Source: an uncultured Planctomycetota bacterium
Lineage (GTDB): Bacteria > Planctomycetota > Planctomycetia > Isosphaerales > Isosphaeraceae
Assembly (NCBI GenBank): GCA_963845755.1
Contig: CAWJTV010000018.1
Location: 64,001 to 128,000 of the forward strand
Length of the DNA stretch: 64,000 bases
Direction: 5' to 3'
The position numbers and the translations under genes were made by a program. Of this stretch, positions 11,666 to 25,594 are shown in pieces (the stretch's first letter is position 1; each line of letters opens with the position of its first letter). Below the pieces are notes generated by a model. The model searched no databases and was not told the DNA's origin. It worked only from the letters and a program-made list of their open reading frames with translations.

Positions 11666-11910
11666 AGCGGCGTTGTCGTATTTCGTCGATCCGAGTGCTC
11701 GGATCCGACGCGAGGTTCAGGAAATCCGAACCACCTGGGTTCGCGGCAGCACGGCCACGGCCCGTCCAACGTGATCGACATCGCCCGGCACACCGCCGTC
11801 GAATTCACCGGCCCCGTCGCGTGAGGGCGTAAAGGAAAACGCTCACCCCCCTGCGGCGCATCGTCGATTCTCCACCGCTTCGGCCCGCCTCTCGGTGGTC
11901 GGCATACCGT
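11665..11910 (+). pseudogene. Decayed, truncated PIN-domain (VapC-like) toxin
   Basis: SYFVDPSARIRREVQEIRTTWVRG / NVIDIARHTAVEFTGPVA* / SILHRFG resembles the PIN N-terminus YFxDSSALVKRYVxExGTxWV...IARITxVE; contains stops and frameshifts. Confidence 0.55.
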
Positions 11911-12155
11911 CGAGGCCGCGACGTTTCCCTCGGACGCCCGATGGCTCAGGGAGTCTTCGAACTCGCCTTCGCCCACTTCGAGAAGACGCCGCTCGCCATG
12001 AACGAGGATGAGCCGCTTGATCCACTGGAGGTAGGCAACCCTCGTGCGAATGCTGTAATGCAACCTCCAGACAACTTCACGGACCCGGTCGAGCAAGGTG
12101 GGCGTCTTATCTCGTCGCGTTTGGTCTGGATAAACCTTGGAAGGTCTGGTTGCAA
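11905..12155 (-). pseudogene. intI: Integron integrase, N-terminal SAM-like domain only; catalytic domain deleted
   Basis: LDRVREVVWRLHYSIRTRVAYLQWIKRLILVHG...LSHRASEGNVAAST matches the IntI N-terminus (LDQVRxxIRxxHYSxRTExAYxxWIxRFIxFH...VAASTQNQA). Similarity stops at VAAST. Gene is divergent from the attC array. Confidence 0.85.
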
Positions 12156-12286: not shown

Positions 12287-12934
12287 TTGGCGACCTTCAC
12301 CGGATACGACCAGGACCGCATCGTCTTCGAGACGATCGCTGATGAGCGGGCCCCCGGCTTGCTACTCCTGATCCACGGGGCCGTCTTCGCAGGGGCACCT
12401 CTCTACGCCTCGGCACTGTACGGGCTGAAGGGGGCCTCAGCTTGGCTGCTCCTCGTCGTGGGAGTCCTGGCGGGCCTCGCCGAGACCGCCTTCGCCTCGA
12501 TCGTGCTGCTCAAATCCGAGTGGCTCGTCATCGACCTGCGGCGGCGGTCCTATACCGGGCATCGCGGGGTCTTGTTCTGGGGCGACAAGTGGTCCGGGCC
12601 CATCGGCGACTTCCATCATATCCGGCTGAGTGAGGTCCCTCGCGGGCGACATGGCCGTCATCGCCGCCTGGTCGTCGAATGGGTCTGGGCCGAGCCGGGA
12701 CGCCCTCCGTTCCGCGTCACCGGCTGGGGCCGCCTCAAGTCCTTCCGTATCACCCGATGTCCGCAGGGGGGTGACGGTCGAGGATTCCTGCGGGATCTCC
12801 GCGCCGTCGCTGAGGATGTGGGCCTCCCGTTGGTCGTCCCGGAGCGATATGTCGATGGCCTCGGCGTCAACGACCGGGAAGTCGACGGCCCGGCTAACAA
12901 GGCGATGCAGCGGACCCGCTGCGCGGGCCGCTGA
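12287..12934 (+). CDS. Cassette 1: hypothetical membrane protein (2 TM)
   Basis: TTG start after a GGAG RBS; ORF reads into the attC. Confidence 0.7.
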   Translation: MATFTGYDQDRIVFETIADERAPGLLLLIHGAVFAGAPLYASALYGLKGASAWLLLVVGVLAGLAETAFASIVLLKSEWLVIDLRRRSYTGHRGVLFWGDKWSGPIGDFHHIRLSEVPRGRHGRHRRLVVEWVWAEPGRPPFRVTGWGRLKSFRITRCPQGGDGRGFLRDLRAVAEDVGLPLVVPERYVDGLGVNDREVDGPANKAMQRTRCAGR

Positions 12935-12950
12935 TCTTGCGTCGTTAGGC
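12892..12950 (+). repeat. attC site (59 bp)
   Basis: GGCTAAC...GCAGCGGACCCGCtgcGCGGGCCGCTGA...GTTAGGC. Confidence 0.92.
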
Positions 12951-12967
12951 GGCTTACCGGAGGCACT

Positions 12968-13471
12968 ATGAACTACAAGCAAATAGCCTCGCGTCTCACC
13001 GGCATCAGTTGTCCCGTCTTCGGCGTTTCGTGGAATCCCCCGGCCACAGAGGTCGATGTCGCCCAGCGAGTCCTTTCGTTTCTCGAAGACCGCCGTGTAC
13101 TCTACAACGAGTACGAGATGGAGTTGCCTGACCATTGCATGATGTCGGTCATCGACATTCGCCGCTTTCTCACTGACGTTCTTGGCCGCCTTCCCAACAA
13201 GCAAGGGCTTCCGGCCCATCTGCGTATGATGCGTGCAGCTTGTCGTCAGTTCCTGGACAAGAATGGCGGCGAACGATTCCGCGATCACCAACCGCACATG
13301 TTTGGTGGCCCGGAGACGTGGGTTTTTGCCAGCGCACTTGGCGATCTCCGAACCACAATCGGGCTACACGTGGGAATCGTCTGCACCATGTATGGCCTTG
13401 GCGTCGAGGGCGACCTTGCGAAGATACTCCCCCCGCTGCCGAATGACGATAACGAGGAGGCCGATGCCTAA
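12968..13471 (+). CDS. Cassette 2: conserved hypothetical protein (DUF6650-like, from recall)
   Basis: IASRLTGISCPVFGVSWNPP...FLEDRRVLYN; GGAGG RBS; stop TAA lies inside the attC R'' box. Confidence 0.8.
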   Translation: MNYKQIASRLTGISCPVFGVSWNPPATEVDVAQRVLSFLEDRRVLYNEYEMELPDHCMMSVIDIRRFLTDVLGRLPNKQGLPAHLRMMRAACRQFLDKNGGERFRDHQPHMFGGPETWVFASALGDLRTTIGLHVGIVCTMYGLGVEGDLAKILPPLPNDDNEEADA

Positions 13472-13525
13472 CAGGCGGTTGCAGCGGACCCGCCTGCGGC
13501 GGGCCGCTGAACCTTTTCGTTAGGC
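13466..13525 (+). repeat. attC site (60 bp)
   Basis: GCCTAAC...GTTAGGC with the conserved internal palindrome. Confidence 0.92.
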
Positions 13526-13545
13526 GGCAGTGTGGAGGCGACGCT

Positions 13546-13812
13546 ATGCGGTCGGCCACCCGATCTTCTCTATTCGTGGTCGCGTGGTCGGTCGGGCTGG
13601 CCTCGCGCTACGCGAACCGCGGTGATCCTCAGTGGGCCACGAAGTTGCGGGTGGCGTGCCTGTTCTTCGTCCTCGGAGGAGCCTTGCTCTGGTCGATCCA
13701 GAAGATCTCCAAGCGGCCGTGGCCTTGGTTCGTAGAAGGCATCGCACTACCGTTCGTCGCCGGCGGCTTGATCTACGGGATCGTCGCCGTACGCAACGCG
13801 TTCAGGGGATAG
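13546..13812 (+). CDS. Cassette 3: small 3-TM membrane protein
   Basis: Hydrophobic ORF with GGAGG RBS between two attC sites. Confidence 0.65.
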   Translation: MRSATRSSLFVVAWSVGLASRYANRGDPQWATKLRVACLFFVLGGALLWSIQKISKRPWPWFVEGIALPFVAGGLIYGIVAVRNAFRG

Positions 13813-13816
13813 CTTT

Positions 13817-13874
13817 GTCTAACAATGCGATGCAGCGGACCCGCTGTGCGGGCCGCTGATCTTGGGCGTTAGCC
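13817..13874 (+). repeat. attC site (58 bp)
   Basis: GTCTAAC...GTTAGCC. Confidence 0.92.
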
Positions 13875-13886
13875 AGCGGAGGGCTC

Positions 13887-14162
13887 ATGGCCGACGATCT
13901 TGTGCACCTCCTGCTCGACATCAAGCTCGCCGGCGACGGGTTCGCATCGCCGGACGAGTTTGATCTCCGGGACCGGCTCGTTGAGCGGATCGAGCGACTG
14001 GGCATCGGTGAGGTCGGCGGCTATGGCTCGGGAGTCGGCGGCATGGACATCTCCGTGCTCGTCGCTGATGAAGCTGAAGGTCGGGGGCGGCTGAGTCGAA
14101 CTCATGCAGGAGGTCGCGCCGGATGCTCGCTTCACCATCGAGGTACTTGCAGACGAGGATGA
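13887..14162 (+). CDS. Cassette 4: small acidic hypothetical protein (possible frameshift near 14095)
   Basis: GGAGG RBS; MADDLVHLLLDIKLAGDGFASPDEFDLRDRL... Confidence 0.65.
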   Translation: MADDLVHLLLDIKLAGDGFASPDEFDLRDRLVERIERLGIGEVGGYGSGVGGMDISVLVADEAEGRGRLSRTHAGGRAGCSLHHRGTCRRG

Positions 14163-14163
14163 C

Positions 14164-14224
14164 GGCTAACGAGGCGATGCAGCGGACCCGCCTGTCGGCG
14201 GGCCGCTGATCTATGGCGTTAGCC
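14164..14224 (+). repeat. attC site (61 bp)
   Basis: GGCTAAC...GTTAGCC. Confidence 0.92.
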
Positions 14225-14234
14225 GGCGTGGGTC

Positions 14235-14564
14235 ATGACACACGATATCGAGGCCGAGTTGACCCTCCTTCCGACCGAGCACGGCGGGCGCCACCTTCCA
14301 GTGTCCTCCGGCTACCGCCCCCAGTTCTATTACAGCGGCCACGACTGGGACGCGGTCCATACATACGTCGATGTCACGGAAGCCCGTCCCGGCGATACCG
14401 TCACCGTCCGGTTGTCCTTCCTTAGCCCGGAAGCGCACGCGGGCAGGATCTTCGCCGGCATGCCGTTCCTCGTGCGCGAGGGTAATCGGGTCGTCGGATA
14501 TGGTCGCGTGACTCGCATCCTTGACTTGGAGGCGGCACATCGACAATCTTCGAAGGAGGGCTAA
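14235..14564 (+). CDS. Cassette 5: stand-alone EF-Tu C-terminal (domain III)-like protein
   Basis: IEAELTLLPTEHGGRHLPVSSGYRPQFYY...PGDTVTV...FLVREGNRVVGYGRVTRI parallels EF-Tu [29 protein letters not shown]...PGDN...FAIREGGRTVGAGVV; no GTPase domain. Confidence 0.85.
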   Translation: MTHDIEAELTLLPTEHGGRHLPVSSGYRPQFYYSGHDWDAVHTYVDVTEARPGDTVTVRLSFLSPEAHAGRIFAGMPFLVREGNRVVGYGRVTRILDLEAAHRQSSKEG

Positions 14565-14616
14565 CAAAGCGATGCAGCGGACCCGCTGCGCGGGCCGCTG
14601 AATTTGGGCGTTAGCC
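14559..14616 (+). repeat. attC site (58 bp)
   Basis: GGCTAAC...GTTAGCC. Confidence 0.92.
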
Positions 14617-14641
14617 AGCATTCCGATTGCACGGGGGGGAC

Positions 14642-15021
14642 ATGAGGGCCGATGATGACCCGTACTTCACGGCGACCGACAAGGCCAAGCCGCATCCGCC
14701 CCGCGGCATGGCGCAGCTCGTGGTGCGAATCCCTTGGTGCCTCTCCTGGGTCGCCGTGGCGCTCCTGTCTATGCAGGTGTTCGTCTCGCCGATCATCTAC
14801 CAGTCGCGGCTGGCGACCGGGGCCTATATCATGACGGAGATCGGGGCCGGGGCGGCTCGGTGCCATCTCGGCCTTCGGCGTGCTGGCCATCCGACTGGTG
14901 CGTTCAGGAGGCTCGCCCGATCCGTACACGAGGAGACTGGCTTGGTCGATACTGAGGGGCCTGCTGGTTGTCATCCTCATAATGACGGGGCTCGAGGTCG
15001 CCTGAGGGAGGCCCCGGCTAA
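14642..15021 (+). CDS. Cassette 6: hypothetical membrane protein, probable frameshift
   Basis: Hydrophobic N-terminal half in ORF 14627-15073; hydrophobic reading resumes in another frame ending at the R'' TAA. Confidence 0.5.
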
Positions 15022-15075
15022 CAAGGCGATGCAGCGGACCCCGCTGCGCGGGGCCGCTGATCTGGGGCGTTAGAC
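15016..15075 (+). repeat. attC site (60 bp)
   Basis: GGCTAAC...GTTAGAC. Confidence 0.92.
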
Positions 15076-15084
15076 GGTGGGGCA

Positions 15085-15420
15085 ATGAGCGTCAGCGACG
15101 ATCTTGACCGGTTGTTTCCAGGCCACCGCTCGCCCGAGCGGGTTGCCGATTGGGAGGCGCTCGAGCAGCGCCTTGCCTACGGGCAGTCCGTCACTGGTAC
15201 GGTCGTCGTCAAATCCCCGTTCGGGGCGTGGGTCGACCTCGGCGTCGGTTTCCCTGCCCTGCTGGAGATCATCGTCATTGTGGGCCTGACGCCCGAGAAA
15301 TATCGTGCGGGTGACTGGTGCCCTGTCGGTAGCGAAGTCTCGGCGTTTGTCGGTGGATTCCGCGATGACTCTCATCAGATAGGGCTGTGGCAGGTGCCGG
15401 TCGGCCATGGCCGCGTCTAA
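15085..15420 (+). CDS. Cassette 7: stand-alone S1 RNA-binding (OB-fold)-like protein
   Basis: WEALEQRLAYGQSVTGTVVVKSPFGAWVDLGVGFPALLEI resembles the S1 repeat motif (GxxVxGxV...FGAFVDLG..GLLHI). Confidence 0.7.
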   Translation: MSVSDDLDRLFPGHRSPERVADWEALEQRLAYGQSVTGTVVVKSPFGAWVDLGVGFPALLEIIVIVGLTPEKYRAGDWCPVGSEVSAFVGGFRDDSHQIGLWQVPVGHGRV

Positions 15421-15473
15421 CTCCGCGTTGCAGTGGACCCGCCTGCGGCGGGCCGCTGAACTTTCCGTTAGGC
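15415..15473 (+). repeat. attC site (59 bp)
   Basis: GTCTAAC...GTTAGGC. Confidence 0.92.
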
Positions 15474-15492
15474 TGCGGAGGCGCAGCGGGTT

Positions 15493-15810
15493 GTGGAGTG
15501 GCTCGTGCCATGGCATTCTGTCGCTGATGATCCAGCCTAGGTGGAGGGCATGGTACGTGAGTTACTCCGCGAGCTTGCTGAAGGTCACCCGCTCTACCGC
15601 CTCCCGGTGCGGACGTGGGGTCGCAGGCAGGACCGCGACGACGTGCTGTTCGCCATAGAAGATGGTAGCGGGCGCGTCGCGGTCGTCCATCTGGCGTGGA
15701 CTTGGAATCCACCCGATCCTCCGCCCTGGCCATGGACCATGCTGTATCGAAGCTTCGATGCGTGGATCGTCGAGGGTGTGCGCCGCGATTACGACGAGTT
15801 GCATGCCTAA
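15493..15810 (+). pseudogene. Cassette 8: small hypothetical protein with an in-frame TAG at 15538-15540
   Basis: GTG GAG TGG...GCC TAG GTG GAG GGC ATG, in frame with ORF 15541-15810 (ELLRELAEGHPLY...DDVLF...RVAVVHLAW). Confidence 0.55.
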
Positions 15811-15862
15811 CCTGCGGTGGCAGCGGACCCGCTCCGCGGGCCGCCGATCTTGGGCGTGAGGT
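15805..15862 (+). repeat. attC site (58 bp), degenerate R' (GTGAGGT)
   Basis: GCCTAAC...GCAGCGGACCCGCtccGCGGGCCGCCGA...GTGAGGT. Confidence 0.8.
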
Positions 15863-15882
15863 GGCGACAGGAGACACTCGGA

Positions 15883-15911
15883 TTGTGGCTCGCGCGGGCG
15901 TGATGTACGCT
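15883..15911 (+). promoter_or_regulatory. Candidate internal cassette promoter TTGTGG-17-TACGCT
   Basis: -10 box ends 6 nt before ATG 15918 (leaderless-type geometry). Confidence 0.4.
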
Positions 15912-15917
15912 GAGTGA

Positions 15918-16212
15918 ATGAGCCCGTCGATTCGAGAGGTCAACCCTGGCGAATTGCGGCTCCCACCGAGTCGGGCCAGCGGGGCCGACCCATGGAAGCT
16001 CCACCAGCAGATCCGACAATTTGGAGCGTCGAGGAACGGGATGCCCCCGATCCTTGTACGAGGATCCGGACGGCATCTTGGAGATCTCCGACGGGGTCAC
16101 CCGCGCCACCCGGATCGCCAAGCTGGCACCAGACCAGACAGTCCCGATCGTGGTGATCGGTCAGTATCGACGAAGCCGGGCAGGCTCCCCTTGCGTGAGG
16201 GACCGGTTATGA
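15918..16212 (+). CDS. Cassette 9a: small ParB/Sulfiredoxin-like protein (frameshift near 16055)
   Basis: IREVNPGELRLPPSR...GMPPIL / YEDPDGILEISDGVTRATRIAKL: PPI...(I)xDGxxR pattern of the ParB/Srx fold. Confidence 0.6.
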
Positions 16213-16434
16213 GCGAGAGCGATACCCGTGTGGAATTGTTCGCCGCCCTCCAGGAATTGTCCGAGGTCATCCCCGAGATGCGGTCCGGCCAGCTCGTGGC
16301 GGCGGTCGGGGAGCTGTGCGCCGATCTCCACGGGCGCGGCCTCTGGGACGCCGCCGACGGCGAGTTGCTCAAGGCCGTATGGCTGTTCCGCCGCAACTAT
16401 GAGGCGGCTCTTACCCCGAGCCGGGACGATACCT
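16209..16434 (+). CDS. Cassette 9b: small helical hypothetical protein; native stop displaced by IS insertion
   Basis: ATGA overlap with 9a; MSESDTRVELFAALQELSEVIPEMRSGQLV...; removing the IS restores in-frame ACC TAA. Confidence 0.7.
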
Positions 16435-16737
16435 TCTATGAACCCGCTGAAGTCAAGCCCCCCGACTGATTTTTTCCGGGCGTCCCGCGGGGCGCGGACA
16501 GCGATCGCTCCGAGTCCGACAGCGTATGTCCTGGCTCCCCGTTTGCGGGGAGCCAGGACACACGCTGTCTCTCGTTCTCCAGACAACGCCGGTGGTCCTG
16601 CGATCGACACTCTCCTTGTCCTTCTCGAAGAACTCCCGAGACCGCGGCTGGTGGCTTCGTCACGCGCGTCGCGCCTGCCAGGAGGCCGCGACCACCTTCT
16701 CTCCGTGTGGATCCTCACTCAAGGGACCGAGCACCCG
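16435..16737 (-). ncRNA. Candidate bridge/seekRNA region of IS copy 1
   Basis: Non-coding, structured, conserved in both IS copies, and 3' of the transposase as in IS1111-group elements; guide loops not assigned. Confidence 0.55.
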
Positions 16738-17950
16738 TTACTCTGTTCGTCCGCGGACGACTCCGAAGCCAGGTGTGGGGACAAACCCATCTAACTCACG
16801 GTCGGCTGCCGCCGACCAGGCGCTTTCCGCCCCCTCGGGGACCTCGCCCTGCTCCAGGTATCGCCACAGCGCGATCAACAACTTGCGGGCCAGGGCCACA
16901 ATCCCCACCTTGCGCCGCCGCGTTGCCCTCGCCGAACCGACGCTGATACCACTGGCTCAAGGCGCTGTGGAGCTGCCAGTGCAGCCAGCCCCAGGCGATC
17001 TCCACCGCCATCCACCGCAGACGACAGTTCCCCGCCTTGCTGATCCCTTGCTCGCGCTGACCGTCGCCACTGGCGTACGGCGTCGGGGCCAAACCGGCGA
17101 GGCTCGCCAGCTCGCGGCGGTTCTGGATCTGCCGCCAGCCGAAGAACTCGCGGACGAACCGCGTCGCGCTCATCGGACCGATCGCCTTGAGGTTCAGCAG
17201 CAGCCGCGGCTTCTCGACGTCGGCCGTCGCGTCGTCGCGGAACGCTCGCCGCTGGGCGTTCTCCAGGTCGCGCACCTGGCGGTCCACCAGTGTCCATCGC
17301 TTGAACTCGCGGCGGATGCGGGCACTCAGCTCGGCCGGGACCGGCCTGCCGTCCCATTGGCGAAGTTGGCCGAGGCGTTCCGGCAACGGGTCATCGACCA
17401 CGACGTCAAGGCCGAGGTTGGCGAGGAGTCCCTTGATGCGATTGGAGTGCTCGGTGCGCTGGCCCTTGACGGCGATCAGCTCGCGGTGGGGCTGACGGCG
17501 GTCCTCATCGTCGGGGGTGGGGATGCGGACGACGCTCCAGAGCTTGTGCTCGCCGCCGTGATAACGGATCAACATCGTCAGGAGCTTGCCGACGTCGAGC
17601 CGATCGCTCTTGGCGCGACGCGCGCGGCGGTTGACCTCGATGCTGGCGGCGTCAACGACGAGGTTCGTGACTGCGTGATGTTGGAGATCGCGATGGAGCC
17701 AGAAGCCGTCGCGGCCGGCCTCGTAGCAGGAGACGAGGGGGACATCGCCGGAAAGGGCGAAGCGTTGCCTGGCGAGGAGGATCTCGCGCTGGAGACCTTC
17801 GAGATCGCGAGCGGGGATGGTGCGGAGCCGCGGCTTCTGGGCCATGGCGGTGGTGAAGGCGAGGTTCAAGGACGTCCAGCCGAGGTCGAAGGCGAGGAAG
17901 AGCGTGTTCGAGGCGGTGGTGGTAGGATGAAGGTCGTGGGTCGCTGACAT
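16738..17950 (-). CDS. IS110-family transposase/recombinase (frameshift near 16915 before RKVGIVALARKLLIALWRYL)
   Basis: DEDD motifs AFDLG, YEAGRDGFWLHR, KSDRLD; C-terminal GLAPTPYASG...GISKAGN. Confidence 0.92.
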
Positions 17951-18050
17951 GGTAAGACTCCGAGGTTGAGAGGGATTTGGTGAAAGACCTCTTCTGAGGA
18001 GCTTACCGTCGGCGGCTCACCGTTTTCAGCCCGGTCGCTCCGGACATAGT

Positions 18051-18100
18051 ATCTAACCAGGCGATGCAGCGGACCCGGCCCGCTGAGCTTGACGTTAGGC
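18051..18100 (+). repeat. attC site (50 bp; R'' ATCTAAC partly supplied by the IS end)
   Basis: ATCTAAC caggcgatGCAGCGGACCCggcCCGCTGA...GTTAGGC. Confidence 0.85.
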
Positions 18101-18111
18101 GGCTTCGAGCG

Positions 18112-18357
18112 ATGGCTCGTGAAGACGTGAAGCTCGACATCCTGCGGCTGGTCGCCCGCCATGACGGAGAGTGGTTCTGGTATCACATCGATCGCGCACT
18201 CAGCGGCGCTCGCATCGGATGCGTCGGCCCCTTCACGGCCGAGATCGGTGATTTGGAGTCCGCAGGACTGATCGAGACCCGCCCGAACTTCGCGCTTGGC
18301 GATCAGGGGCGTTACTGGCGAACTGAGGCGGGACGCGCGGCGGTCGCGGACGCCTAA
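18112..18357 (+). CDS. Cassette 10: small winged-helix-like hypothetical protein
   Basis: KLDILRLVARHDGEWFWYHIDRAL...LESAGLIE...RYWRTEAGRA (wHTH-type ending). Confidence 0.65.
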   Translation: MAREDVKLDILRLVARHDGEWFWYHIDRALSGARIGCVGPFTAEIGDLESAGLIETRPNFALGDQGRYWRTEAGRAAVADA

Positions 18358-18449
18358 TCGGCGCGGCAGGGGACCTGAACCGCCACAGCACTTAAGGATG
18401 CGAACGAACTCATCTCGGTGGCCCCGGACACTGGCCCAAGTGGTCATGC
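18352..18449 (+). repeat. Degenerate long attC-like site (~98 bp)
   Basis: GCCTAAT at the gene stop ... GTCATGC followed by ggc; position fits a cassette boundary. Confidence 0.4.
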
Positions 18450-18457
18450 GGCTTCCA

Positions 18458-18485
18458 TTGCTGGTCGGTCCGATCGCGGTATAAT
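18458..18485 (+). promoter_or_regulatory. Promoter of the TA cassette (TTGCTG-16-TATAAT)
   Basis: Consensus -10 upstream of GGAGG RBS and ATG 18502. Confidence 0.65.
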
Positions 18486-18501
18486 GTTGGGGGAGGTGTC
18501 C

Positions 18502-18721
18502 ATGATCCAGACAGTTGAAGCGGTGGTCAACGCGACCGGCCACGTGCGATTGCTCGGCGAAGTGCGAGTCGAACGCGCCCCGTCGGGCTTTGGTGACCGT
18601 GCTCGAAGAGCCGGCCGCTGTACCCGGTGAGGCGGCGCTGCTGGCCGAGGCGGCCTTGGCCGCCGATTGGTCGAGGCCGGAGGAGGATGCCGCGTGGTCG
18701 TACCTTCAGCCGGCGAAGTAG
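18502..18721 (+). CDS. Cassette 11a: putative antitoxin (frameshift near 18575)
   Basis: MIQTVEAVVNATGHVRLLGEVR / PRRALVTVLEE...ALAADWSRPEEDAAWSYL; overlaps the MazF-like gene. Confidence 0.7.
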
Positions 18722-19038
18722 TGCTGGTCCCGTTCCCCTTCTCGGACCTGTCGCAGTCCAAGTTGCGGCCGGCAGTCTGCCTGGCCCCCGCCGGCCGGGG
18801 CGACTGGGTGCTCTGCCAGATCACGAGTAGTCCCTACGGCGATCCCTCGGCGGTGCCGTTGGACGCAACGGACTTCACCACGGGCGGGCTGCTGGTGGCG
18901 AGTTTCGCCCGGCCGGGTAAGCTCTTCACCGCCAGCGTCGGCCTCATGGTGAAATCGGTCGGCATTCTTTCTCCCGCTGCGCTGGCCCGGGTACTTTCGG
19001 TGGTCGCTGCACTCTTCCAGCCACCTTCGGGGCCCTGA
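18694..19038 (+). CDS. Cassette 11b: PemK/MazF-family endoribonuclease toxin
   Basis: GEVVLVPFPFSDLSQSKLRPAVCL...VLCQITS motif. Confidence 0.9.
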   Translation: MVVPSAGEVVLVPFPFSDLSQSKLRPAVCLAPAGRGDWVLCQITSSPYGDPSAVPLDATDFTTGGLLVASFARPGKLFTASVGLMVKSVGILSPAALARVLSVVAALFQPPSGP

Positions 19039-19039
19039 C

Positions 19040-19098
19040 GCCTAACGAGGCGATCCAGCGGACCCGCTGGCGCGGGCCGCTGATCTTTAACGTTAGGA
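19040..19098 (+). repeat. attC site (59 bp)
   Basis: GCCTAAC...GTTAGGA. Confidence 0.9.
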
Positions 19099-19117
19099 AG
19101 CAAGAAAAGGGGCTGGC

Positions 19118-19453
19118 ATGAAAGCCTTCGTGGTGTCTCTCAACGGCCAACCGTTCGTGACAGCCGGGGTCGGTGATGATGGCGTCCTCGCCACAGGGCT
19201 CAGCTGGGTCGGTGGCTCCCCACCACGTCCCGTCGAGGGCCGGCTAGATTTTCGCGTGGGCGGCGTTGACGGGCGCACTGGGGAGCACATCAATTGGTCG
19301 GTCCCCGAGATCGGCGTTGGCGACGAGATCACGATCAAGGTCATCGAGACGGCTCAGGTGACGCCTGAAGACGAGCGCTACCGCTTCGACGAGTCGAACT
19401 GCCATATCGGCGTCAGGGGCGAAGAGACCGAGGCGGGAGAAGAGGAGCCTTGA
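19118..19453 (+). CDS. Cassette 12: small beta-rich hypothetical protein
   Basis: MKAFVVSLNGQPFVTAGVGDDGVL...GDEITIKVIE; followed by IS copy 2. Confidence 0.75.
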   Translation: MKAFVVSLNGQPFVTAGVGDDGVLATGLSWVGGSPPRPVEGRLDFRVGGVDGRTGEHINWSVPEIGVGDEITIKVIETAQVTPEDERYRFDESNCHIGVRGEETEAGEEEP

Positions 19454-19458
19454 GTTCT

Positions 19459-21026
19459 TCTATGAAACCGCTGAAGTCAAGCCCCCCGACTGATTCTTTC
19501 CGGGCGCCCCGCGGGCGCGGACAGCGATCGCTCCGAGTCCGACAGCGTGTGTCCTGGCTCCCCGCAAACGGGGAGCCAGGACACACGCTGTTTCTCGTTC
19601 TCCAGGCAACGCCGGTGGTCCTGCGATCGGCACACTCCTTCCTCTTGCGAAAGAACTCCCGGGACCGCGGCTGGTGGCTTCGTCACGCGCGTCGCGCCTG
19701 CCAGGAGGCCACGACCACCTTCTCTCCGTGTCGGTCCTCATTCCAGGGACCGAGCACCCGTTACTCTGTTCGTCCGCGGACAACTCCGAAGCCAGGTGTG
19801 GGGACAAACCCATCTAACTCACGGTCGGCTGCCGCCGACCAGGCGCTTTCCGCCCCCTCGGGGACCTCGCCCTGTTCCAGGTATCGCCACAGCGCGATCA
19901 ATAACTTGCGGGCCAGGGCCACAATCTCCACCTTCGCGCCGCGCGTTGCCCTCGCCGAACCGACGCTGATACCACTGGCTCAAGGCGCTGTGGGGCTGCC
20001 AGTGCAGCCAGCCCCAGGCGATCTCCACCGCCATCCACCGCAGACGACAGTTCCCCGCCTTGCTGATCCCTTGCTCGCGCTGACTGTCGCCACAGGCGCA
20101 CGGCGTCGAGGCCAAGCCGGCGAGGCTCGCCAGCTCGCGGCGGTTCTGGATCTGCCGCCAGCCGAAGAACTCGCGGACGAACCGCGTCGCGCTCATCGGA
20201 CCGATCGCCTTGAGGTTCAGCAGCAGCCGCAGCTTCTCGACGTCGGCCGTCGCGTCGTCGCGGAAGGCACGCCGCTGGGCGTTCTCCAGGTCGCGCGCCT
20301 GGCGGTCCACCAAAGTCCAGCGGTCGAACTCGCGGCGGATGCGGGCACTCAGCTCGGCCGGGACCGGCCTCCCATCCCATTGGCGAAGTTGGCCGAGGCG
20401 TTCCGGCAACGGGTCATCGGCCTCGACGTCAAGGCCGAGGTTGGCGAGCAGGCCTTTGATGCGATGGGAGTGCTCGGTGCGCTGACCCTTGAGGGCGATC
20501 AGCTCGCGATGGGGCTGGCGGCGATCTCCGTCGTCGGGCGTGGGGATGCAGACGATGCTCCAGAGCTTGTGCTCGCCGCCGTGATAACGGATCAACATCG
20601 TCAGGAGCTTGCCGACGTCGAGCCGATCGCTCTTGGCGCGGCGGGCGCGGCGATTGCCCTCGATGCTGGCGTCGTCGACGACGCAGTTGGTGACGGCGTG
20701 GTGTTGGAGATCGCGATGGAGCCAGAAGCCGTCGCGGCCGGCCTCGTGGCCGGAGAGCACGGGGGCGTCGCCGGGGAGGGCGAAGCGGTCTCGGGCGCAG
20801 AGGATCTCGCGCTGAAGGGCGTCGAGATCGCGAGCGGGGATGGTGCGGAGCCGCGGCTTCTGGGCCATGGCGGTGGTGAAGGCGAGGTTCCAGGACGTCC
20901 AGCCGAGGTCGAAGGCGAGGTCGAGCGTGTTCGAGGCGGCGGTGGTAGGATGAAGGTCGTGGGTCGCTGACATGGTAAAACTCCGAGGTTGAGAGGGATT
21001 TGGCGAAAGACCTCTTCTGAGGAGGT
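19459..21026 (-). mobile_element. IS110-family element copy 2, decayed; transposase-upstream end missing
   Basis: Begins after CT (19457-58) with tctatgaa as in copy 1; similarity to copy 1 ends at about 21026. Confidence 0.88.
19761..20973 (-). pseudogene. IS110 transposase copy 2 (same frameshift; SCYEAG>SGHEAG, PYASG>PCACG)
   Basis: Highly similar to copy 1, but the conserved C-terminal Ser is replaced by Cys. Confidence 0.85.
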
Positions 21027-21164
21027 TAGAGCGCCCCACCGTTGGGTGGCACCCACTCGAAGCCTGCTCCCGAAGAACCCCCTGAACCCCCCCTGCGAAG
21101 GGGGGGTTCGGGGGTGAGTTCGCAGCGCCTCAGGGCGTGCGCAACGCAAGAGTTAAGCGCTCTA
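21027..21164. mobile_element. MITE-like 138-bp element with 8-bp terminal inverted repeats TAGAGCGC/GCGCTCTA
   Basis: IRs at 21027-34 and 21157-64; internal hairpin ccccctgaaccccccctgcgaagggggggttcggggg. Confidence 0.5.
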
Positions 21165-21366
21165 GCTGGCGGCCCGCGGAGGTGGCTGCGTGGGCGGGTT
21201 GCTGGTGGAGCTCAACTTCAGGACCATAGTCGAGGTCTTCAAGGCAGCCTGGCGACATGACTTCCCCAATTCCCCGTGAGGTCCCCGGCGCGCAGATGTC
21301 ATTGAGGTCGCCTCGCAGCCAATGCCCTCACATCCCCTCTGGGACCGCGAGATCGACGGCCGTTAG

Positions 21367-21395
21367 TTGTCCCGGGGTTCGACGGTCGTTATTGT
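21367..21395 (+). promoter_or_regulatory. Candidate internal cassette promoter TTGTCC-17-TATTGT
   Basis: Overlaps/follows a GTTAGTT (R'-like) box at 21362-68, upstream of the RusA-like gene. Confidence 0.45.
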
Positions 21396-21449
21396 AACGG
21401 GGAGAAGTCGCCTCTCACGAAGGGAGGTGACGCTCGAGAGACTGCGAAA

Positions 21450-21854
21450 ATGCATTTGGAGTTTGTCGTAGTCGGTGTTCCCATCTCAAACCAGTCGGCA
21501 GGAACTGCCGCCCTTCAAGCCTGGCGGACGGCGGTAGAGACCGAAGTAAAGAAGAACTGGACTGGTACTCCACTGACCGGCAGGCTGAAGGCGGTTATCA
21601 TCAACTTTCACACGGGTGATAAGCCATCCCTCGACCTCGACAACATGACGAAACCGATACTGGACGTCATGCAGCAAATCGTCTACGACGATGACCGCCA
21701 GGTTCGGCAGGCCGAACTCACACACGTCCGGATCGACGCGCCGTTCGTCTTCGTCGGGGCCTCGAAACTTATCGTGGCCGCCGTGCAAGCCGGTAATGAG
21801 TTTGTGTACGTGAGAATAGAGGACCCGATCGATCCATTCCCATTACCGACGTGA
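21450..21854 (+). CDS. Cassette gene: RusA-family endodeoxyribonuclease-like protein
   Basis: FVVVGVPIS...DLDNMTKPILDVMQQIVYDDDRQV: RusA DxDNxxKxxxD...DDxQV motif. Confidence 0.85.
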   Translation: MHLEFVVVGVPISNQSAGTAALQAWRTAVETEVKKNWTGTPLTGRLKAVIINFHTGDKPSLDLDNMTKPILDVMQQIVYDDDRQVRQAELTHVRIDAPFVFVGASKLIVAAVQAGNEFVYVRIEDPIDPFPLPT

Positions 21855-21858
21855 TACC

Positions 21859-22542
21859 ATGGATTACGAACAAGAGTTGAATCGTTTGGCAGACATTTAT
21901 CGAGGTCACGGCTACGACGTGACCGTCCGGCCTGGCCCGGATCAATTGCCTCCGTTCGCCAGAGATTTCAGGGTGGAAATCCTCGGCCGCCGCGGAGCCG
22001 AGGGTGTGCTCGTTGCAGTCAGGAGAAACCGCGACGAAGTTGCAGCCGACAGCGACATGCAGCGGTATGCTGAGACCACGGGAGCTCAGCCTGGGTGGCG
22101 ATTCGATTTCGCCATTCTCGAGTCGGAGCAGCCGAATGCCAGAGAGGTGCGGGGAGCGAAGGAGCTTTCGCAGGACGACATCAACAAGTCACTTGAACAG
22201 GCACGGGAACTCAGCCGAATGGGCTTCACAGGGTTTGCGGTCGTCGCAGCTTGGGCCACGTTGGAAGCGGCCATGCGGATGCGGCTCCGGGCTCTCGGAC
22301 AGGAAGCGGGTTGGGGAAGCATCCCCAGGCAGATGACAAGAGAACTCTATTCCGCAGGCGCGTTATCCCCAGACGAATTCCGTCGAATTGAGAGCGCGTC
22401 CCAGCTCAGGAACCAGATCGTTCACGGCTTCGCGTCGCAGCCCGCTGAGCCAGGCGATTCTGAGGCTGCGATGGTCGAAGTTCTGAGCGGCGTCGCTCAT
22501 CGCCTCGTTAATGAATCCCAACCCGCAGCGCAATCCACTTGA
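21859..22542 (+). CDS. Cassette gene: REase (AHJR-like) N-terminal domain fused to HEPN-like domain
   Basis: LADIYRGHGYDVTVRPGPDQLPPF...PGWRFDF (AHJR-like REase, from recall); AWATLEAAMR...LRNQIVHG (RxxxxH HEPN motif). Confidence 0.7.
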   Translation: MDYEQELNRLADIYRGHGYDVTVRPGPDQLPPFARDFRVEILGRRGAEGVLVAVRRNRDEVAADSDMQRYAETTGAQPGWRFDFAILESEQPNAREVRGAKELSQDDINKSLEQARELSRMGFTGFAVVAAWATLEAAMRMRLRALGQEAGWGSIPRQMTRELYSAGALSPDEFRRIESASQLRNQIVHGFASQPAEPGDSEAAMVEVLSGVAHRLVNESQPAAQST

Positions 22543-22556
22543 GCCGACTACCTATC

Positions 22557-22614
22557 GGCTAACCCGCGGTTGCAGCGGACCCGCTGCGCGGGCCGCTGAA
22601 CCTGGGCGTTAGCC
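22557..22614 (+). repeat. attC site (58 bp)
   Basis: GGCTAAC...GTTAGCC. Confidence 0.92.
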
Positions 22615-22631
22615 GGCGGGGGAACGTAATC

Positions 22632-22946
22632 ATGAAAGCGATCTCGTCCGTGCTGCTCATCCTGGCAGTCGCCTGCTCCGGCACGGGGCAAGAGCCGGAG
22701 GACGGCTACGTCCCGGACGATGGATTCGTCCCAAGCAAGGAAGTTGCTATCAAGATTGCCGTCGCGGTCTGGGAGCCGATCTACGGCGCGGAGAAAATCG
22801 CCAAGGAGAAGCCCTACCGTGCGACCCTGGCCGACGGCGTTTGGACCGTCGAGGGATCGCTATCGAAGGGCAGCAACGGCGGTGTGGCCCTCGCCAGGAT
22901 CGCGAAGAAGGACGGCCGCATCCTTCGCGTCACCCACGGCAAGTGA
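22632..22946 (+). CDS. Cassette: YbbC/YhhH-family NTF2-fold immunity protein with signal peptide
   Basis: GFVPSKEVAIKIAVAVWEPIYG...KPY...WTVEGSL...GGVA...I.KKDGRILRVTHGK. Confidence 0.85.
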   Translation: MKAISSVLLILAVACSGTGQEPEDGYVPDDGFVPSKEVAIKIAVAVWEPIYGAEKIAKEKPYRATLADGVWTVEGSLSKGSNGGVALARIAKKDGRILRVTHGK

Positions 22947-22975
22947 CTCTGAACCGGGGCGCCATCGAGGGTCGC

Positions 22976-23032
22976 GCCTAGCCTTGCGATGCAGCGGACC
23001 CGCTTTGCGGGCCGCTGAGCTTTGTGTGAGGT
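22976..23032 (+). repeat. attC site (57 bp), both R boxes degenerate
   Basis: GCCTAGC...GCAGCGGACCCGCtttGCGGGCCGCTGA...GTGAGGT. Confidence 0.8.
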
Positions 23033-23038
23033 GGCGTA

Positions 23039-23386
23039 GTGAGAGCGTCCACGCGACAACGTGACCATGGACTCCCGCTCGTCCTTCGTTGGTCGCGGGA
23101 CGTCCTGGGAGCGTTCGTCACTCTGGTAGCCCTCGTGTTCACGACCCGGAACTGGGGGACGCCAGCGGCGGCAGTCAACTGCGCCCTCGCTGTCGCCGGG
23201 GCCGTCGGGCTCCGGCTGCGATCGTGGCCGGTCCTCGCAGCCTTGTCTGGTGCGTATCTCGGCGCCATCGCGGGGACCTCCATGGGGGACTCGGCGGTAA
23301 ACGCGCCGGTTCATGGTCTGTTGCTCGCCATCTGCGGGACGGTTGTGGGATATGGCTTTCAAATGATGGAGCGGGGACCGGCCTAA
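23039..23386 (+). CDS. Cassette: small multi-TM membrane protein
   Basis: Hydrophobic ORF with stop inside R''; start uncertain. Confidence 0.6.
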   Translation: MRASTRQRDHGLPLVLRWSRDVLGAFVTLVALVFTTRNWGTPAAAVNCALAVAGAVGLRLRSWPVLAALSGAYLGAIAGTSMGDSAVNAPVHGLLLAICGTVVGYGFQMMERGPA

Positions 23387-23439
23387 CGAAGCATGGCAGC
23401 AGCCCCACTGCGCGGGGCCGCTGATCCTGGGCGTTAGGC
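23381..23439 (+). repeat. attC site (59 bp)
   Basis: GCCTAAC...GTTAGGC. Confidence 0.88.
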
Positions 23440-23461
23440 GGCGGAAGGGGAGGGTTTGGGG

Positions 23462-24100
23462 ATGCGTTCGTTCTGGGGCGAGTTCGTTCGCGCGCGTGCC
23501 TTCTGGGTGAGCTACGTCAGCGCGGGGGTGGATTTCGTCGGTTGCGGCAGCCTCCAGGCTGACCAACGGCTGCTCTGGGAGGAGCCGACGTGCGGGGCGA
23601 CGCTGATGTTCCGCTTCCCCGACTCCCACCGGCTGCGCCTGGATGTTGCGGCGGGGGAGCATAAGCTGCAACTGCTGCACCCCGACTACGACGAGCCGCA
23701 ACTTGTTGGCACGATGGACTGTCACCAGATGAGCGATCTCTTCCGGTGGGACGAGTTCCGGGCGGTCACCCGGCACCTGGCCACGACTTCCGGCCCGACG
23801 TCGGCGCACGAACTGTTGCTGAGTTTCTACGTCGCCGTCACCGAGGATTGTGCGGATGAGCATGCGGTGGTGCTGCGGCGGACCCTGGAAGCGTCGGAGG
23901 TATTTGCCGTCCCGGAAATCGAGCATATCTTGGCCTATACGCGTCGGGTTGCGGTGCGTCGGGATTTCCGATGGGTCCACACCCCGGGGTTGGGGTGGCT
24001 GGCAGAGGGCCGCGACACCTACTGCATGCGGCACACGCGGGGTGAGCTCGACTTCGATCGGTTCAGCCGGTTCCTGGGAGCGCTGGCCAGCGACGCGTGA
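23462..24100 (+). CDS. Cassette: hypothetical protein (213 codons)
   Basis: ORF fills the cassette; stop TGA inside an R''-like box. Confidence 0.75.
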   Translation: MRSFWGEFVRARAFWVSYVSAGVDFVGCGSLQADQRLLWEEPTCGATLMFRFPDSHRLRLDVAAGEHKLQLLHPDYDEPQLVGTMDCHQMSDLFRWDEFRAVTRHLATTSGPTSAHELLLSFYVAVTEDCADEHAVVLRRTLEASEVFAVPEIEHILAYTRRVAVRRDFRWVHTPGLGWLAEGRDTYCMRHTRGELDFDRFSRFLGALASDA

Positions 24101-24194
24101 CCTGCGCTGCAACGGAACCGGACCGCGGCTGCGGCTTTCTGGTAGAATCGAGGCAGATGCTCGGCGGGCCGGGCTGTTGAGCTTGTTGTTACGC
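24095..24194 (+). repeat. Long attC-like site (100 bp), different family
   Basis: GCGTGAC...GTTACGC are near-complementary ends, with imperfect arms (caacggaaccgg / ccgggctgttg). Confidence 0.65.
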
Positions 24195-24256
24195 GGCGGC
24201 CAATCTACCGACAGTGGTGATGTCGCGGGGGACCACGCCTGCAGTCGGGGGCTACT

Positions 24257-24604
24257 ATGCAAGAATTCGGGCCCTACTTCCTTCTTGCCTCAATGCTCGG
24301 TTCGCTCCTCGCTCCTCTCCTCATCGGAATCTTACCGAGGGAGGCAGCCAGGCGTGTGGTGGTATGGGCTCTCCGCATCTTGGTCCCGACCTTCCTCGTA
24401 AGTTTCATCTCGCTCGCGGCACAAGGGGATCGAGGCTTCCTCAGCAACTCGCAATCCGTGCTAACGGGCTCCGTCTTCTTGATCCTGTCCGTAGGCCTCG
24501 GCTACTTCGTATCATGGCTGCGTCACACATTGTCGAGCCGAGGTATTCAAGGCTCCCGGGGTGGGAAAATCAAGGCGGGACTATTGGACGATGAATTGGC
24601 CTGA
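24257..24604 (+). CDS. Cassette: 3-TM membrane protein
   Basis: Hydrophobic ORF ending GLLDDELA at the attC. Confidence 0.7.
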   Translation: MQEFGPYFLLASMLGSLLAPLLIGILPREAARRVVVWALRILVPTFLVSFISLAAQGDRGFLSNSQSVLTGSVFLILSVGLGYFVSWLRHTLSSRGIQGSRGGKIKAGLLDDELA

Positions 24605-24644
24605 CCTGCGGTTGCAGCGGGCCGCTGCAACCTTCACGATTGGA
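24599..24644 (+). repeat. Collapsed, degenerate attC (~46 bp)
   Basis: GCCTGAC ctgcGGTTGCAGCGG g CCGCTGCAACC ttcac GATTGGA; central hairpin lost. Confidence 0.6.
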
Positions 24645-24654
24645 GGCTCTCTCG

Positions 24655-24918
24655 ATGGTCCGTCAACTCTTCACTGTCGAGGATGTCTTCACGATCCGTC
24701 AGCGTGGCACCATCCTCGTGCCGGGAATCGTGCCCGAGGGCGATGAGTGGTTCCATATCGGCGACGGCTTGTGCCTGCGCCGCCCCGATGGGTCGGAAGT
24801 TCGGACGGCGATCGATGGCATCGACTTCTTCAACGTCAGCGAGCACGGTGCTTACGCGATCGTGGTGCCCTTACCTGCATCCGATGTGCCACTTGGCATC
24901 GAGGTCTGGTCGGCATAG
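24655..24918 (+). CDS. Cassette: stand-alone EF-Tu domain II-like beta-barrel protein
   Basis: LFTVEDVFTIRQRGTILVPGI...IGDGLCLRRPDG...TAIDGIDFF parallels EF-Tu [20 protein letters not shown]...VGEEVEI...TCTGVEMF. Confidence 0.65.
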   Translation: MVRQLFTVEDVFTIRQRGTILVPGIVPEGDEWFHIGDGLCLRRPDGSEVRTAIDGIDFFNVSEHGAYAIVVPLPASDVPLGIEVWSA

Positions 24919-24924
24919 GCTGGA

Positions 24925-24985
24925 GCCCAACAATTGGTTGCAGCCGACGCGCCTGTCGGCGGGCCGCTGAACCTTCGCGTTAGGC
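24925..24985 (+). repeat. attC site (61 bp)
   Basis: GCCCAAC...GTTAGGC. Confidence 0.88.
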
Positions 24986-25036
24986 GGTGGGAGTCTTGGA
25001 GCATCCTTGAGGCGCTGGTGTCGATCGAGGGGTCAT

Positions 25037-25579
25037 ATGCCTTCATCCGTCCGCGGCCTGCTGGGGGCTGTCCCCGTCGTGATGATCGGTTGCCTCGCCA
25101 TCCGGGGCGCTGCTCTGCCGGCTCCCTGGGTCATCACGACCGCGGCGTTCTTGTTCGGCCTCCCCGCATTACTCAGTCCCTCGGCTCGGCCCGAGTGGCG
25201 ATCCGCCTTGATTGCGTTCGCCTGGGCCGGCTCGCTTTACCTCGTGCTGTGCTTCGGCCCCGGCCTCGACCTGTGCGAACTCGAGTACCTCCCCTCCACG
25301 GCGGCACTCAATCGCCTCTTCCCGGTGATATTCACAGAAGGCTATCTCCAAGACCTGGCGGTCGAGCGTGAAGGCTGCACTTGCGACCGATGTGTCACTG
25401 ATGTCCGGGACGGCCTCCGTAGCGGATTTCTCCAGGCAGGCCACATCGTCACCGCGTTGCTCGCGGCGGCACTCTCTGGGCTGGCAGCTTGGGCGCTGTC
25501 ATCGTATCGTGGGGTGGGCGTACGAAAAGAGGCCCGGCCTAACCCACGGTTGCAGCGGACCCCTGCCGCGGGCCGCTGA
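25037..25579 (+). CDS. Cassette: 4-TM membrane protein
   Basis: Hydrophobic ORF reading into the attC. Confidence 0.7.
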   Translation: MPSSVRGLLGAVPVVMIGCLAIRGAALPAPWVITTAAFLFGLPALLSPSARPEWRSALIAFAWAGSLYLVLCFGPGLDLCELEYLPSTAALNRLFPVIFTEGYLQDLAVEREGCTCDRCVTDVRDGLRSGFLQAGHIVTALLAAALSGLAAWALSSYRGVGVRKEARPNPRLQRTPAAGR

Positions 25580-25594
25580 CCTCGAGCATTAGGC
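25537..25594 (+). repeat. Last clear attC site (58 bp), R' mutated to ATTAGGC
   Basis: GCCTAAC...GCAGCGGACCC...GGGCCGCTGA...ATTAGGC. Confidence 0.85.

Follow-up and report, generated by a model that had tools for sequence, protein, structure and literature searches.

The window analysed here is a stretch of 64,000 nucleotides from an uncultured Planctomycetota bacterium of the family Isosphaeraceae (GenBank assembly GCA_963845755.1, contig CAWJTV010000018.1, positions 64,001 to 128,000; contig C18 below). It carries an integron cassette array of 15 attC sites belonging to one family, with the consensus G[GCT]CTAAC ... GCAGCGGACCCGC ... GCGGGCCGCTGA ... GTTAG[GCA]C, and two copies of an IS110-family insertion sequence (IS) are lodged in this array (Table 1). 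An earlier note on this DNA had read copy 1 as a precise insertion into the R'' box of an attC site at a CT core, and we found the junctions exactly as it described them. The left junction reads gatacCT/tctatg and the right junction catagtat/CTaaccagg, which places the insertion point within the box at ACCT^AAC and gives an element of 1618 bp, or 1620 bp if one CT is counted. The sequence that follows the IS, ATCTAAC...GTTAGGC, belongs to the attC family of the window array. As the note had also stated, both window copies lie antisense to the cassettes.

When copy 1 is excised in the frame of the ATG at 16209, the sequence becomes GAT ACC TAA C, and this confirms the note's claim that removal restores an in-frame TAA stop within an ACCTAAC box. 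With the IS present the cassette open reading frame (ORF) gains 11 codons and stops at TGA 16467-16469. Because the genome holds no uninterrupted paralogue of an occupied cassette (the attC-side flanks of four other full copies, C39a, C39b, C47a and C47b, match only other attC sites), we infer this excision product from the interrupted locus. Three other ORFs of the array likewise end on the TAA of an R'' box (ends 14564, 15420 and 15810; attC starts 14559, 15415 and 15805).

A profile built from 11 of the window sites and run over the whole genome (14.27 Mb in 49 contigs, the scope of all genome-wide counts below) recovered 98 attC sites, which fall into six arrays (31 sites on contig C39, 23 on C41, 15 on C18, 9 on C47 and 8 each on C3 and C34) plus four singles. 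They have an R'' box RYYYAAC, an R' box GTTRRRY and an internal imperfect palindrome, and the arrays lie next to intI.

Table 1. Features in and around the two IS copies of the cassette array, in window coordinates
Feature	Position	Strand	Remarks
Integron integrase remnant	11908..12096	-	Model positions 1-63 only; C18:75908-76096, 38.9 bits; upstream of array
Cassette array	12892..25593	+	15 attC sites; C18 76892-89593
Cassette ORF	16209..16434	+	75 codons, without Pfam family; TAA stop regained on IS removal
Core CT, cassette side	16433..16434		AG in transposase orientation; YCT ending in 7/7 such junctions
IS copy 1	16435..18052	-	Both termini present: ATACTATG... at 18052, ...TTCATAGA at 16435 (transposase orientation); aligns end to end with 4 other full genomic copies
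TTGACT, -35-like hexamer	16451..16456	-	16 nt from right end; GGGCTTGAC conserved in relatives
51-nt perfect-stem hairpin in 3' non-coding region	16519..16569		Hairpin kept in relatives with other sequence
Candidate donor-binding part	16695..16746	-	ACAGAGUAAC, second hairpin, GGAGAGAAGG resembling right end ATAGA + core AG + G; weaker than target guides
Proposed top-strand-identical guide	16789..16797	-	GAGUUAG + AU; GUUAG at 16791-16795; AU as the first two IS bases
Transposase frame	16796..17950	-	384 codons; frameshift near 16910, truncated by deletion; mechanical stop inside guide module
Hairpin between proposed target guides	16800..16817	-	GGUCGGC-GGCA-GCCGACC; compensatory changes in relatives
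Proposed guide GCGCCU	16818..16823	-	Complementary to top strand; would pair with AG-GCGC, the first four R'' bases + flank
Junction of ~162-bp deletion	16819..16831	-	Common to both window copies; last transposase codons and 5' part of RNA module gone
5' non-coding end	17951..18052	-	102 bp, terminus ATACTATG; 5-bp subterminal inverted repeat CTATG/CATAG with other end
attC after IS	18051..18100	+	ATCTAAC (AT from IS, CTAAC from original R'') ... GTTAGGC (R'); nhmmer match from model position 3 (CTAAC)
Core CT, attC side	18053..18054		Belongs to R'' box
IS copy 2	19459..21028	-	93% identical to copy 1, same deletion and frameshift; lacks last ~47 bp and attC

Copies in the genome and their decay

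A BLAST search of the genome returned five full, two-ended copies (copy 1 of the window, C18a, together with C39a, C39b, C47a and C47b), two partial ones (copy 2 of the window, C18b, and C39c, which runs into a contig end) and two fragments, namely a 335-bp end fragment beside a lone attC on C5 and a 54-bp fragment on C36. Cassette-side junctions read YCT/TCTATG in seven of seven cases (acct, ttct, gcct, ttct, gcct, ttct and gcct). All six readable junctions on the attC side carry CATAGTAT, or CATCGTCT in the fragment on C5; next come CTAAC (CTCAC in C47b) and the other parts of an attC site. Six of the 98 sites are thus preceded by an IS end, and every one of these junctions lies in an R'' box. 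The five full copies have the same 2-nt core CT on both sides with no longer repeat, which indicates insertion without target duplication. Since the flanks all differ and none is duplicated elsewhere in the genome, the copies represent separate insertion events.

The concentration of these junctions in R'' exceeds what chance would give. The heptamer GTTAGGC occurs 293 times in the genome (22 in R'', 24 in R' and 247 elsewhere) and the broader motif GTTAG[GA][CAT] 1080 times, with just 54 of the latter in R'', and yet six of six junctions are there. The occupied R'' boxes are of the forms ACC, GCC and TTC followed by TAAC; GGCTAAC and GTCTAAC, both common among free sites, are absent from the occupied set.

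Copy 2 had been credited with the same geometry as copy 1. This holds for its left junction, TGA gtt CT/tctatg, but not for its right end, where similarity is lost after ...ctcttctgaggag at 21028 and the sequence goes on with gttagagcgcc.... The break falls exactly at the start of the R' core-like gttagag, and from there to the next attC extends a 1.6-kb two-gene cassette with RusA-like and AHJR-like nucleases (window 21029-22614). This break may stem from recombination of the integrase type at a secondary site within the end of the IS.

All copies are defective. Pairwise divergence among them is 5-12%. Intact relatives have a transposase frame of 395-400 codons. When the protein of one such relative, L022, whose frame is open over 395 codons, was aligned to six genomic copies, two reading frames were needed in five. 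For the sixth, C47a, one uninterrupted alignment with only 60% identity was obtained; in the DNA alignment its transposase gene lacks a single nucleotide at three places. Both window copies have a 2-nt shortfall near 16910 in addition to the ~162-bp deletion, which eliminated the final codons of the transposase together with the 5' portion of the conserved non-coding region. Their 93% identity and their location at different attC sites imply at least one round of copying of the deleted form, presumably by functions supplied in trans. Judged by these sequences, the IS family in this genome looks old and inactive.

As to the integron context, we found one intact integron integrase gene (C3:161245-162186, 484.9 bits against a cut-off of 265). 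Short remnants lie beside the other arrays, that of the window included (C39:444197-444658, C41:42494-42691 and C47:23641-23829), several of which match model positions 1-63 only. The array-borne IS copies are all in arrays with a degraded integrase (C18, C39 and C47), and the arrays on C3, C41 and C34 hold none of the copies found. A stretch of 135-137 nt beside C47b (C47:6643-6779) is present with 100% identity at seven places in cassette arrays (three on C47 and two on C41, with C3 also among the other six); it may represent a further repeat element or a cassette portion that recurs.

Relatives at other targets and the predicted guide RNA

Relatives from other genomes and metagenomes have the termini ATACTATG and (C/T)ATAGA and an AG core, and some of them sit at sequences other than attC. 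The targets are ccgATTATTC-AG-GCGTCAC, a local repeat, for L024 and L027 from a Planctomycetota metagenome-assembled genome; GGGGTC-AG-AAGGAACC for L062 from a genome of the same genus; CCGGATG-AG-(AA)GGGGGAC for L068; and TTGCT-AG-TGTAGTGC for a Caballeronia copy. Plain 6-mer matching of the non-coding region against target and element ends was too noisy in this G+C-rich DNA, and it was replaced by a comparison of these retargeted relatives.

The comparison revealed a conserved module ~140 nt after the stop codon. A stem formed by GGGGGCGACC and its partner GGGUUUGUCCCC encloses, in this order, a variable segment, a hairpin, another variable segment with AG at its end, and two bases. RNAalifold predicted this structure from 12 sequences, with compensatory changes in 16 of the 30 pairs. 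The second variable segment corresponds to the left flank plus core of each element's own target: UUAUUCAG against TTATTCAG in L024 (8/8), GGAUGAG against GGATGAG in L068 and GGGUCAG against GGGTCAG in L062 (7 matching positions in each), UUGUUAG against TTGTTAG in C39a, and GUUAG against GTTAG in the other attC-type copies. In an all-against-all table, guide and target agree at 5-8 positions on the diagonal or within the attC class (5-7 in that class) and at 2-4 positions for unrelated targets. The exception is the Caballeronia copy, whose second segment matches its own target at only 4 positions. The first variable segment is complementary to the core and right flank, over 9 nt in the Caballeronia copy and 7 nt in L062; ACGCC faces GGCGT in L024, GCGCCU faces AGGCGC in the window copies and L022, and CGUCU faces AG(A/G)CG in the C39 and C47 copies. 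The predicted guides and their targets thus co-vary across four target classes within a conserved structure, which supports the earlier suggestion that the element would use RNA-guided recombination at a 2-nt core.

A candidate donor-binding part of the RNA, (A)CA.AGUA, a hairpin and GGA(G/U/A)AGAAG, would fit the element ends (TACT... on the left and ATAGA-AG on the right). The AU that follows GUUAG equals the first two bases of the element, and for this reason the regenerated ATCTAAC mirrors the guide. TTGACT would face GATACT at a spacing of 17 nt across a circle junction and may form a circle-junction promoter; transcription of the RNA and a circular intermediate are likewise predictions. 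We also considered that the hairpin between the guides mimics the attC interior. This idea was dropped, because the hairpin is retained in L024, whose target is not attC, and altered in L025. An Rfam scan of the element gave two sub-threshold microRNA-like matches, on the palindrome only.

The reading that we favor, and consider highly probable, is that the window copy is the relic of an ISRel9-related IS110-family element with a 3'-encoded bridge or seek RNA whose guides are directed at the R'' heptamer. The RNA would be encoded by the long stretch of non-coding DNA that follows the transposase gene, and in its target-binding part a stem would enclose the two guides, 5' and 3', with a hairpin between them. 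The 3' guide, (U)NGUUAG, and the 5' guide, GCGCCU or CGUCU, would specify GTT-AG-G/A-C, the reverse complement of the R'' heptamer. Because of this specification, recombination at the AG/CT core would insert the element within R'' (GCCT^AAC), in every case opposite in orientation to the cassettes and with no duplication of the target.

Of 36 other genomes of the same family, 8 have DNA-level matches to the element (E <= 1e-20); the 24 genomes searched from other families of the class have none. At the protein level, relatives are labelled Fimbriimonadales, Bryobacteraceae, Isosphaeraceae and Sphingomonadales. Three side observations concern these relatives. The target of L024 and L027 is a short dispersed repeat, gtccgattattcaggcgtcacacgt, which recurs within 100 bp of the element and resembles REP (repetitive extragenic palindromic) sequences; REP-like targets are known for other IS110-family members. 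The left junction of L079, a metagenome copy in an attC site, reads GTTAG-ATAC-ATACTATG and has a 4-nt duplication of the IS terminus. The Caballeronia plasmid L042 carries a second related IS110-type element, of which three copies follow one another head to tail at a spacing of 1738 bp (~659880-664103) and three more lie elsewhere on the plasmid.

Transposase ancestry and known attC-associated systems

With Pfam, the transposase matched only the IS110 C-terminal domain Transposase_20 (PF02371, 1.7e-14). The NCBIfam model 'IS110 family RNA-guided transposase' (NF033542) scored 139 bits against a cut-off of 140 on the broken window copy, over residues 22-337, and 166.2 bits on the intact relative L022, so that both broad profiles place the protein in the IS110 family. 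Its best plasmid relatives, from Paraburkholderia, Caballeronia and Cupriavidus, are 46-51% identical. ISRel9-family copies are the closest named transposases (36-38% identity), with ISSso6 at 27%, and IS1111-type copies (ISShdy1, ISPsy16 and copies from Klebsiella) reach ~25-27% over about half of the protein. In a midpoint-rooted maximum-likelihood tree of 15 proteins, from which L030 and the window copy were left out and which carries a long-branch warning for ISSso6 and ISRel9, the element and its relatives form one clade with the ISRel9-family transposase at 100/99 support. ISKpn4, ISPa21, ISPsy16, ISShdy1 and an unnamed Klebsiella IS110-family transposase form a separate clade with 100/100 support. 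In supplement file 6 of Siddiquee et al. 2024, ISRel9 is likewise far from the IS1111 block of the identity matrix, at ~20% to ISPst6.

The published definition of the IS1111 group includes subterminal inverted repeats of 7-17 bp, and the element has only the 5-bp CTATG/CATAG. It does have the longer non-coding region downstream of the transposase gene (102 bp upstream vs 361 bp downstream, or ~525 bp undeleted), but such a region is also found in some IS110-type groups (Siddiquee et al. 2024). Relatedness to IS1111 transposases over the full length is absent from both the alignments and the tree. On this sequence basis we assign the element to the IS110 family, in a subgroup related to ISRel9, and not to the IS1111 group.

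Insertion of IS1111-type elements near the 5' end of attC and antisense to the cassettes is already known (Léon and Roy 2010), the group comprising ISPst6, ISPa21, ISKpn4 and the ISPa25 branch. Their insertion position was read from actual ISKpn4 and ISPst6-like copies. The ISKpn4/ISPst6 right-end pattern of a published supplementary table led to an ISPst6-like fragment and from there to named plasmid copies of ISKpn4 and ISPa21. In the class 1 integron of plasmid pPC9 (intI1, aadB, qacL, ISKpn4) the ISKpn4 transposase runs against the cassettes; read in its direction, the junctions are ...gtcggcttgaa/IS/tgaattGTTAGAT. ISKpn4 is therefore inserted ~6 nt 3' of R'', between R'' and L'' (ATCTAAC AATTCA^), and the ISPst6-like fragment, /ccagttGTTAGGG, has the same arrangement (CCCTAAC AACTGG^). 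The insertion point of the planctomycete element is ~9 nt away. A side observation concerns the ISPa21 copy on a Pseudomonas aeruginosa plasmid (L034), which is not in a recognizable attC and has CGAATTG on both sides, beside dndB.

The two kinds of element thus have much in common: both are IS110-superfamily elements, the known group with a DEDD transposase, that insert site-specifically near the 5' end of attC with a fixed orientation opposite to that of the cassettes, and encode a guide RNA, predicted in our case, 3' of tnp. They differ in ancestry, as BLASTP against ISKpn4 finds the transposases 24% identical over 176 aa and the clades are separate. They differ also in the subterminal repeat, which is 13 bp in ISKpn4 (ATGGACTCTCCCC/GGGGAGAGTCCAT), and in hosts, Pseudomonadota for the known group and Planctomycetota here. 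Finally, ISKpn4 splits R'' from L'', whereas the planctomycete element enters inside R'' and CTAAC stays with the rest of the site. This distance in transposase and insertion point bears out the earlier proposal of an independent attC-associated lineage; grouping with IS1111-attC members at the same position was seen neither in the tree nor in the junctions. In the literature searched, one limited collection, we found no description of an IS110-type element inside R'' or in planctomycete integrons.

Within the 100/99 clade, the ISRel9-like branch (the name was given by the annotation pipeline PGAP to a Rhizobium plasmid copy) and the relatives from Caballeronia, Paraburkholderia and Cupriavidus are the nearest comparison. 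The Caballeronia copy agrees with the element in its termini (ATACTATG / CATAGA) and AG core and also has a 3' guide module. Unlike the planctomycete element, the copies of this branch that were examined have other targets, e.g. CTAG-TGTAGTGC, and none is in attC. The predicted RNA also resembles known guide RNAs. Like the IS621 bridge RNA it would be a two-part RNA with guides on both sides of a distal stem-loop, a 2-nt core and bases after each guide that match the partner DNA, and its stem-guide-hairpin-guide-stem layout resembles the bridge RNA loop. In IS621 the RNA lies 5' of the recombinase gene, in contrast to the 3' position and top-strand match first seen here, and the solved structures have no sequence-level match to our protein. 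The 3' position and the guide order, in which the top-strand match precedes the bottom-strand match, are as reported for IS1111 seekRNAs. Group IIC-attC introns also insert near the 5' end of attC and antisense to the array, but they are retroelements with a wholly different mechanism.

Specificity for R'' and the fate of the occupied site

The proposed guides cover roughly GTT-AG-GC, which is the R'' heptamer and little beyond it. Outside this genome, relatives with the same guide or terminus account for four junctions in an attC R'' box (two in L022, one each in L026 and L079), and five relatives with the same GUUAG guide are at sites without attC features (L023, L025, L076, L080 and L081). 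The flanks of L074, L075 and L077 end in GTTAG and are too short to judge, and that of L078 ends in CTTAA. The view that the element targets attC, put to the flank comparison across all copies that was proposed to check it, is therefore supported only in part: within the genome six of six junctions are in R'', and outside it the same-guide relatives divide between attC and other sites.

Several observations weigh against the reading of an R''-directed guide RNA, and we set them out together. The guides explain only ~7-9 bp, and because most GTTAGGC sites lie elsewhere, pairing alone does not explain six of six junctions in R'' and none in R'. The match of the 5' guide is weak in several of the genome's own copies (3-4 nt) and noisy in the matrix, which was scored by longest match, and the donor-binding assignment rests on short matches. 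Concerning the protein, the Pfam DEDD model gave no match even at E = 10, though the NCBIfam alignment does span the N-terminal half, and a PDB sequence search gave no match at E <= 0.01. With frame breaks in all six genomic copies aligned with L022, activity in this genome cannot be assumed.

The R'' restriction could mean that the element reads more of attC than the heptamer, such as the fold of the site, its strand or further contacts towards L'', and is a true attC specialist. The excess of R'' over other GTTAG[GA][CAT] sites would fit this, as would the fact that attC insertions are in R'' in 10 of 10 cases (six in this genome, three in L022 and L026, one in L079) and never in R', which presents the same heptamer on the other strand. 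We nonetheless regard it as unlikely, given the five same-guide relatives at non-attC sites and a search for further complementarity to the conserved attC interior that found none. Moreover, the same pattern could arise from the loss of harmful insertions at other sites, from a T two bases upstream of GTTAG that is commoner in R'' (T.GTTAG occurs in 54 R'' boxes vs 18 R' boxes) or from selection against the sense orientation. Each of these is a possible cause of the R''-only pattern, and so is a further determinant.

Could the element simply belong to the described IS1111-attC group? It does share that group's habit near the 5' end of attC, the antisense orientation and a 3' non-coding region with a putative RNA guide. 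But members of the group are 76-89% identical to ISPst6, and even the ISPa25 branch is at ~46%, compared with the 24% over 176 aa to ISKpn4 found here; with the fully supported separate clade, the displaced insertion point and the 5-bp subterminal repeat, membership is almost certainly wrong. It is also very improbable that the copies owe their spread to mobilization of IS-bearing cassettes by the integron integrase rather than to transposition. The IS does lie within cassette boundaries, and copy 2 ends exactly at the R'-core-like gttagag, but the seven cassette-side and six attC-side flanks are all different and the genome has neither an IS-free nor an IS-bearing duplicate. We retain the guide-directed insertion of an ISRel9-related element into R'' as the best explanation.

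The earlier note had further proposed that the IS end regenerates the box, so that attC may stay functional. Part of this stands: ATCTAAC fits RYYYAAC, and L'', L', R' and five of the seven R'' bases remain contiguous. The AT, on the other hand, is the terminus of all relatives, including those aimed at other sequences, and as five of the seven bases come from the target, the fit is a by-product and not an adaptation. Two outer R-box pairs would be lost (ATCTAAC vs the complement of GTTAGGC), and free attC sites in this genome often mismatch at the second position too, e.g. GGCTAAC with GTTAGGC. The occupied attC may still fold. It may also stay recombination-competent, since the element enters inside R'' and leaves CTAAC-L''-L'-R' contiguous, in contrast to an ISKpn4-type insertion, which splits the site. 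In the fullest version of this idea, IntI would move gene plus IS as one cassette, giving the element a second, integrase-driven route of spread; it would be a benign passenger of the sedentary integrons of Planctomycetota, and its R''-only, antisense pattern would reflect more than base pairing. We think this scenario quite unlikely, and a search of the genome for duplicates of IS-bearing cassettes found none.

The window copies are dead relics, and their direct biological effect is small: one cassette ORF is longer by 11 codons. That IS110-type elements insert in attC is already known; what is new here is an attC insertion independent of the IS1111-attC group in both ancestry and position. 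Accordingly, RNA-guided IS110-type elements would have been programmed onto attC at least twice, from distant branches and at two positions ~9 nt apart, and attC targeting by an IS110-type element extends to a phylum far from the clinical Pseudomonadota. The relatives, with a common scaffold and four targets, form a clean natural set in which the target guides of this little-studied 3'-RNA subgroup can be mapped. The finding also raises the question whether insertion within R'' leaves attC functional, in contrast to the disruption attributed to the known group; according to a 2024 paper, ISPa21 insertions might disrupt attC, on limited experimental evidence.

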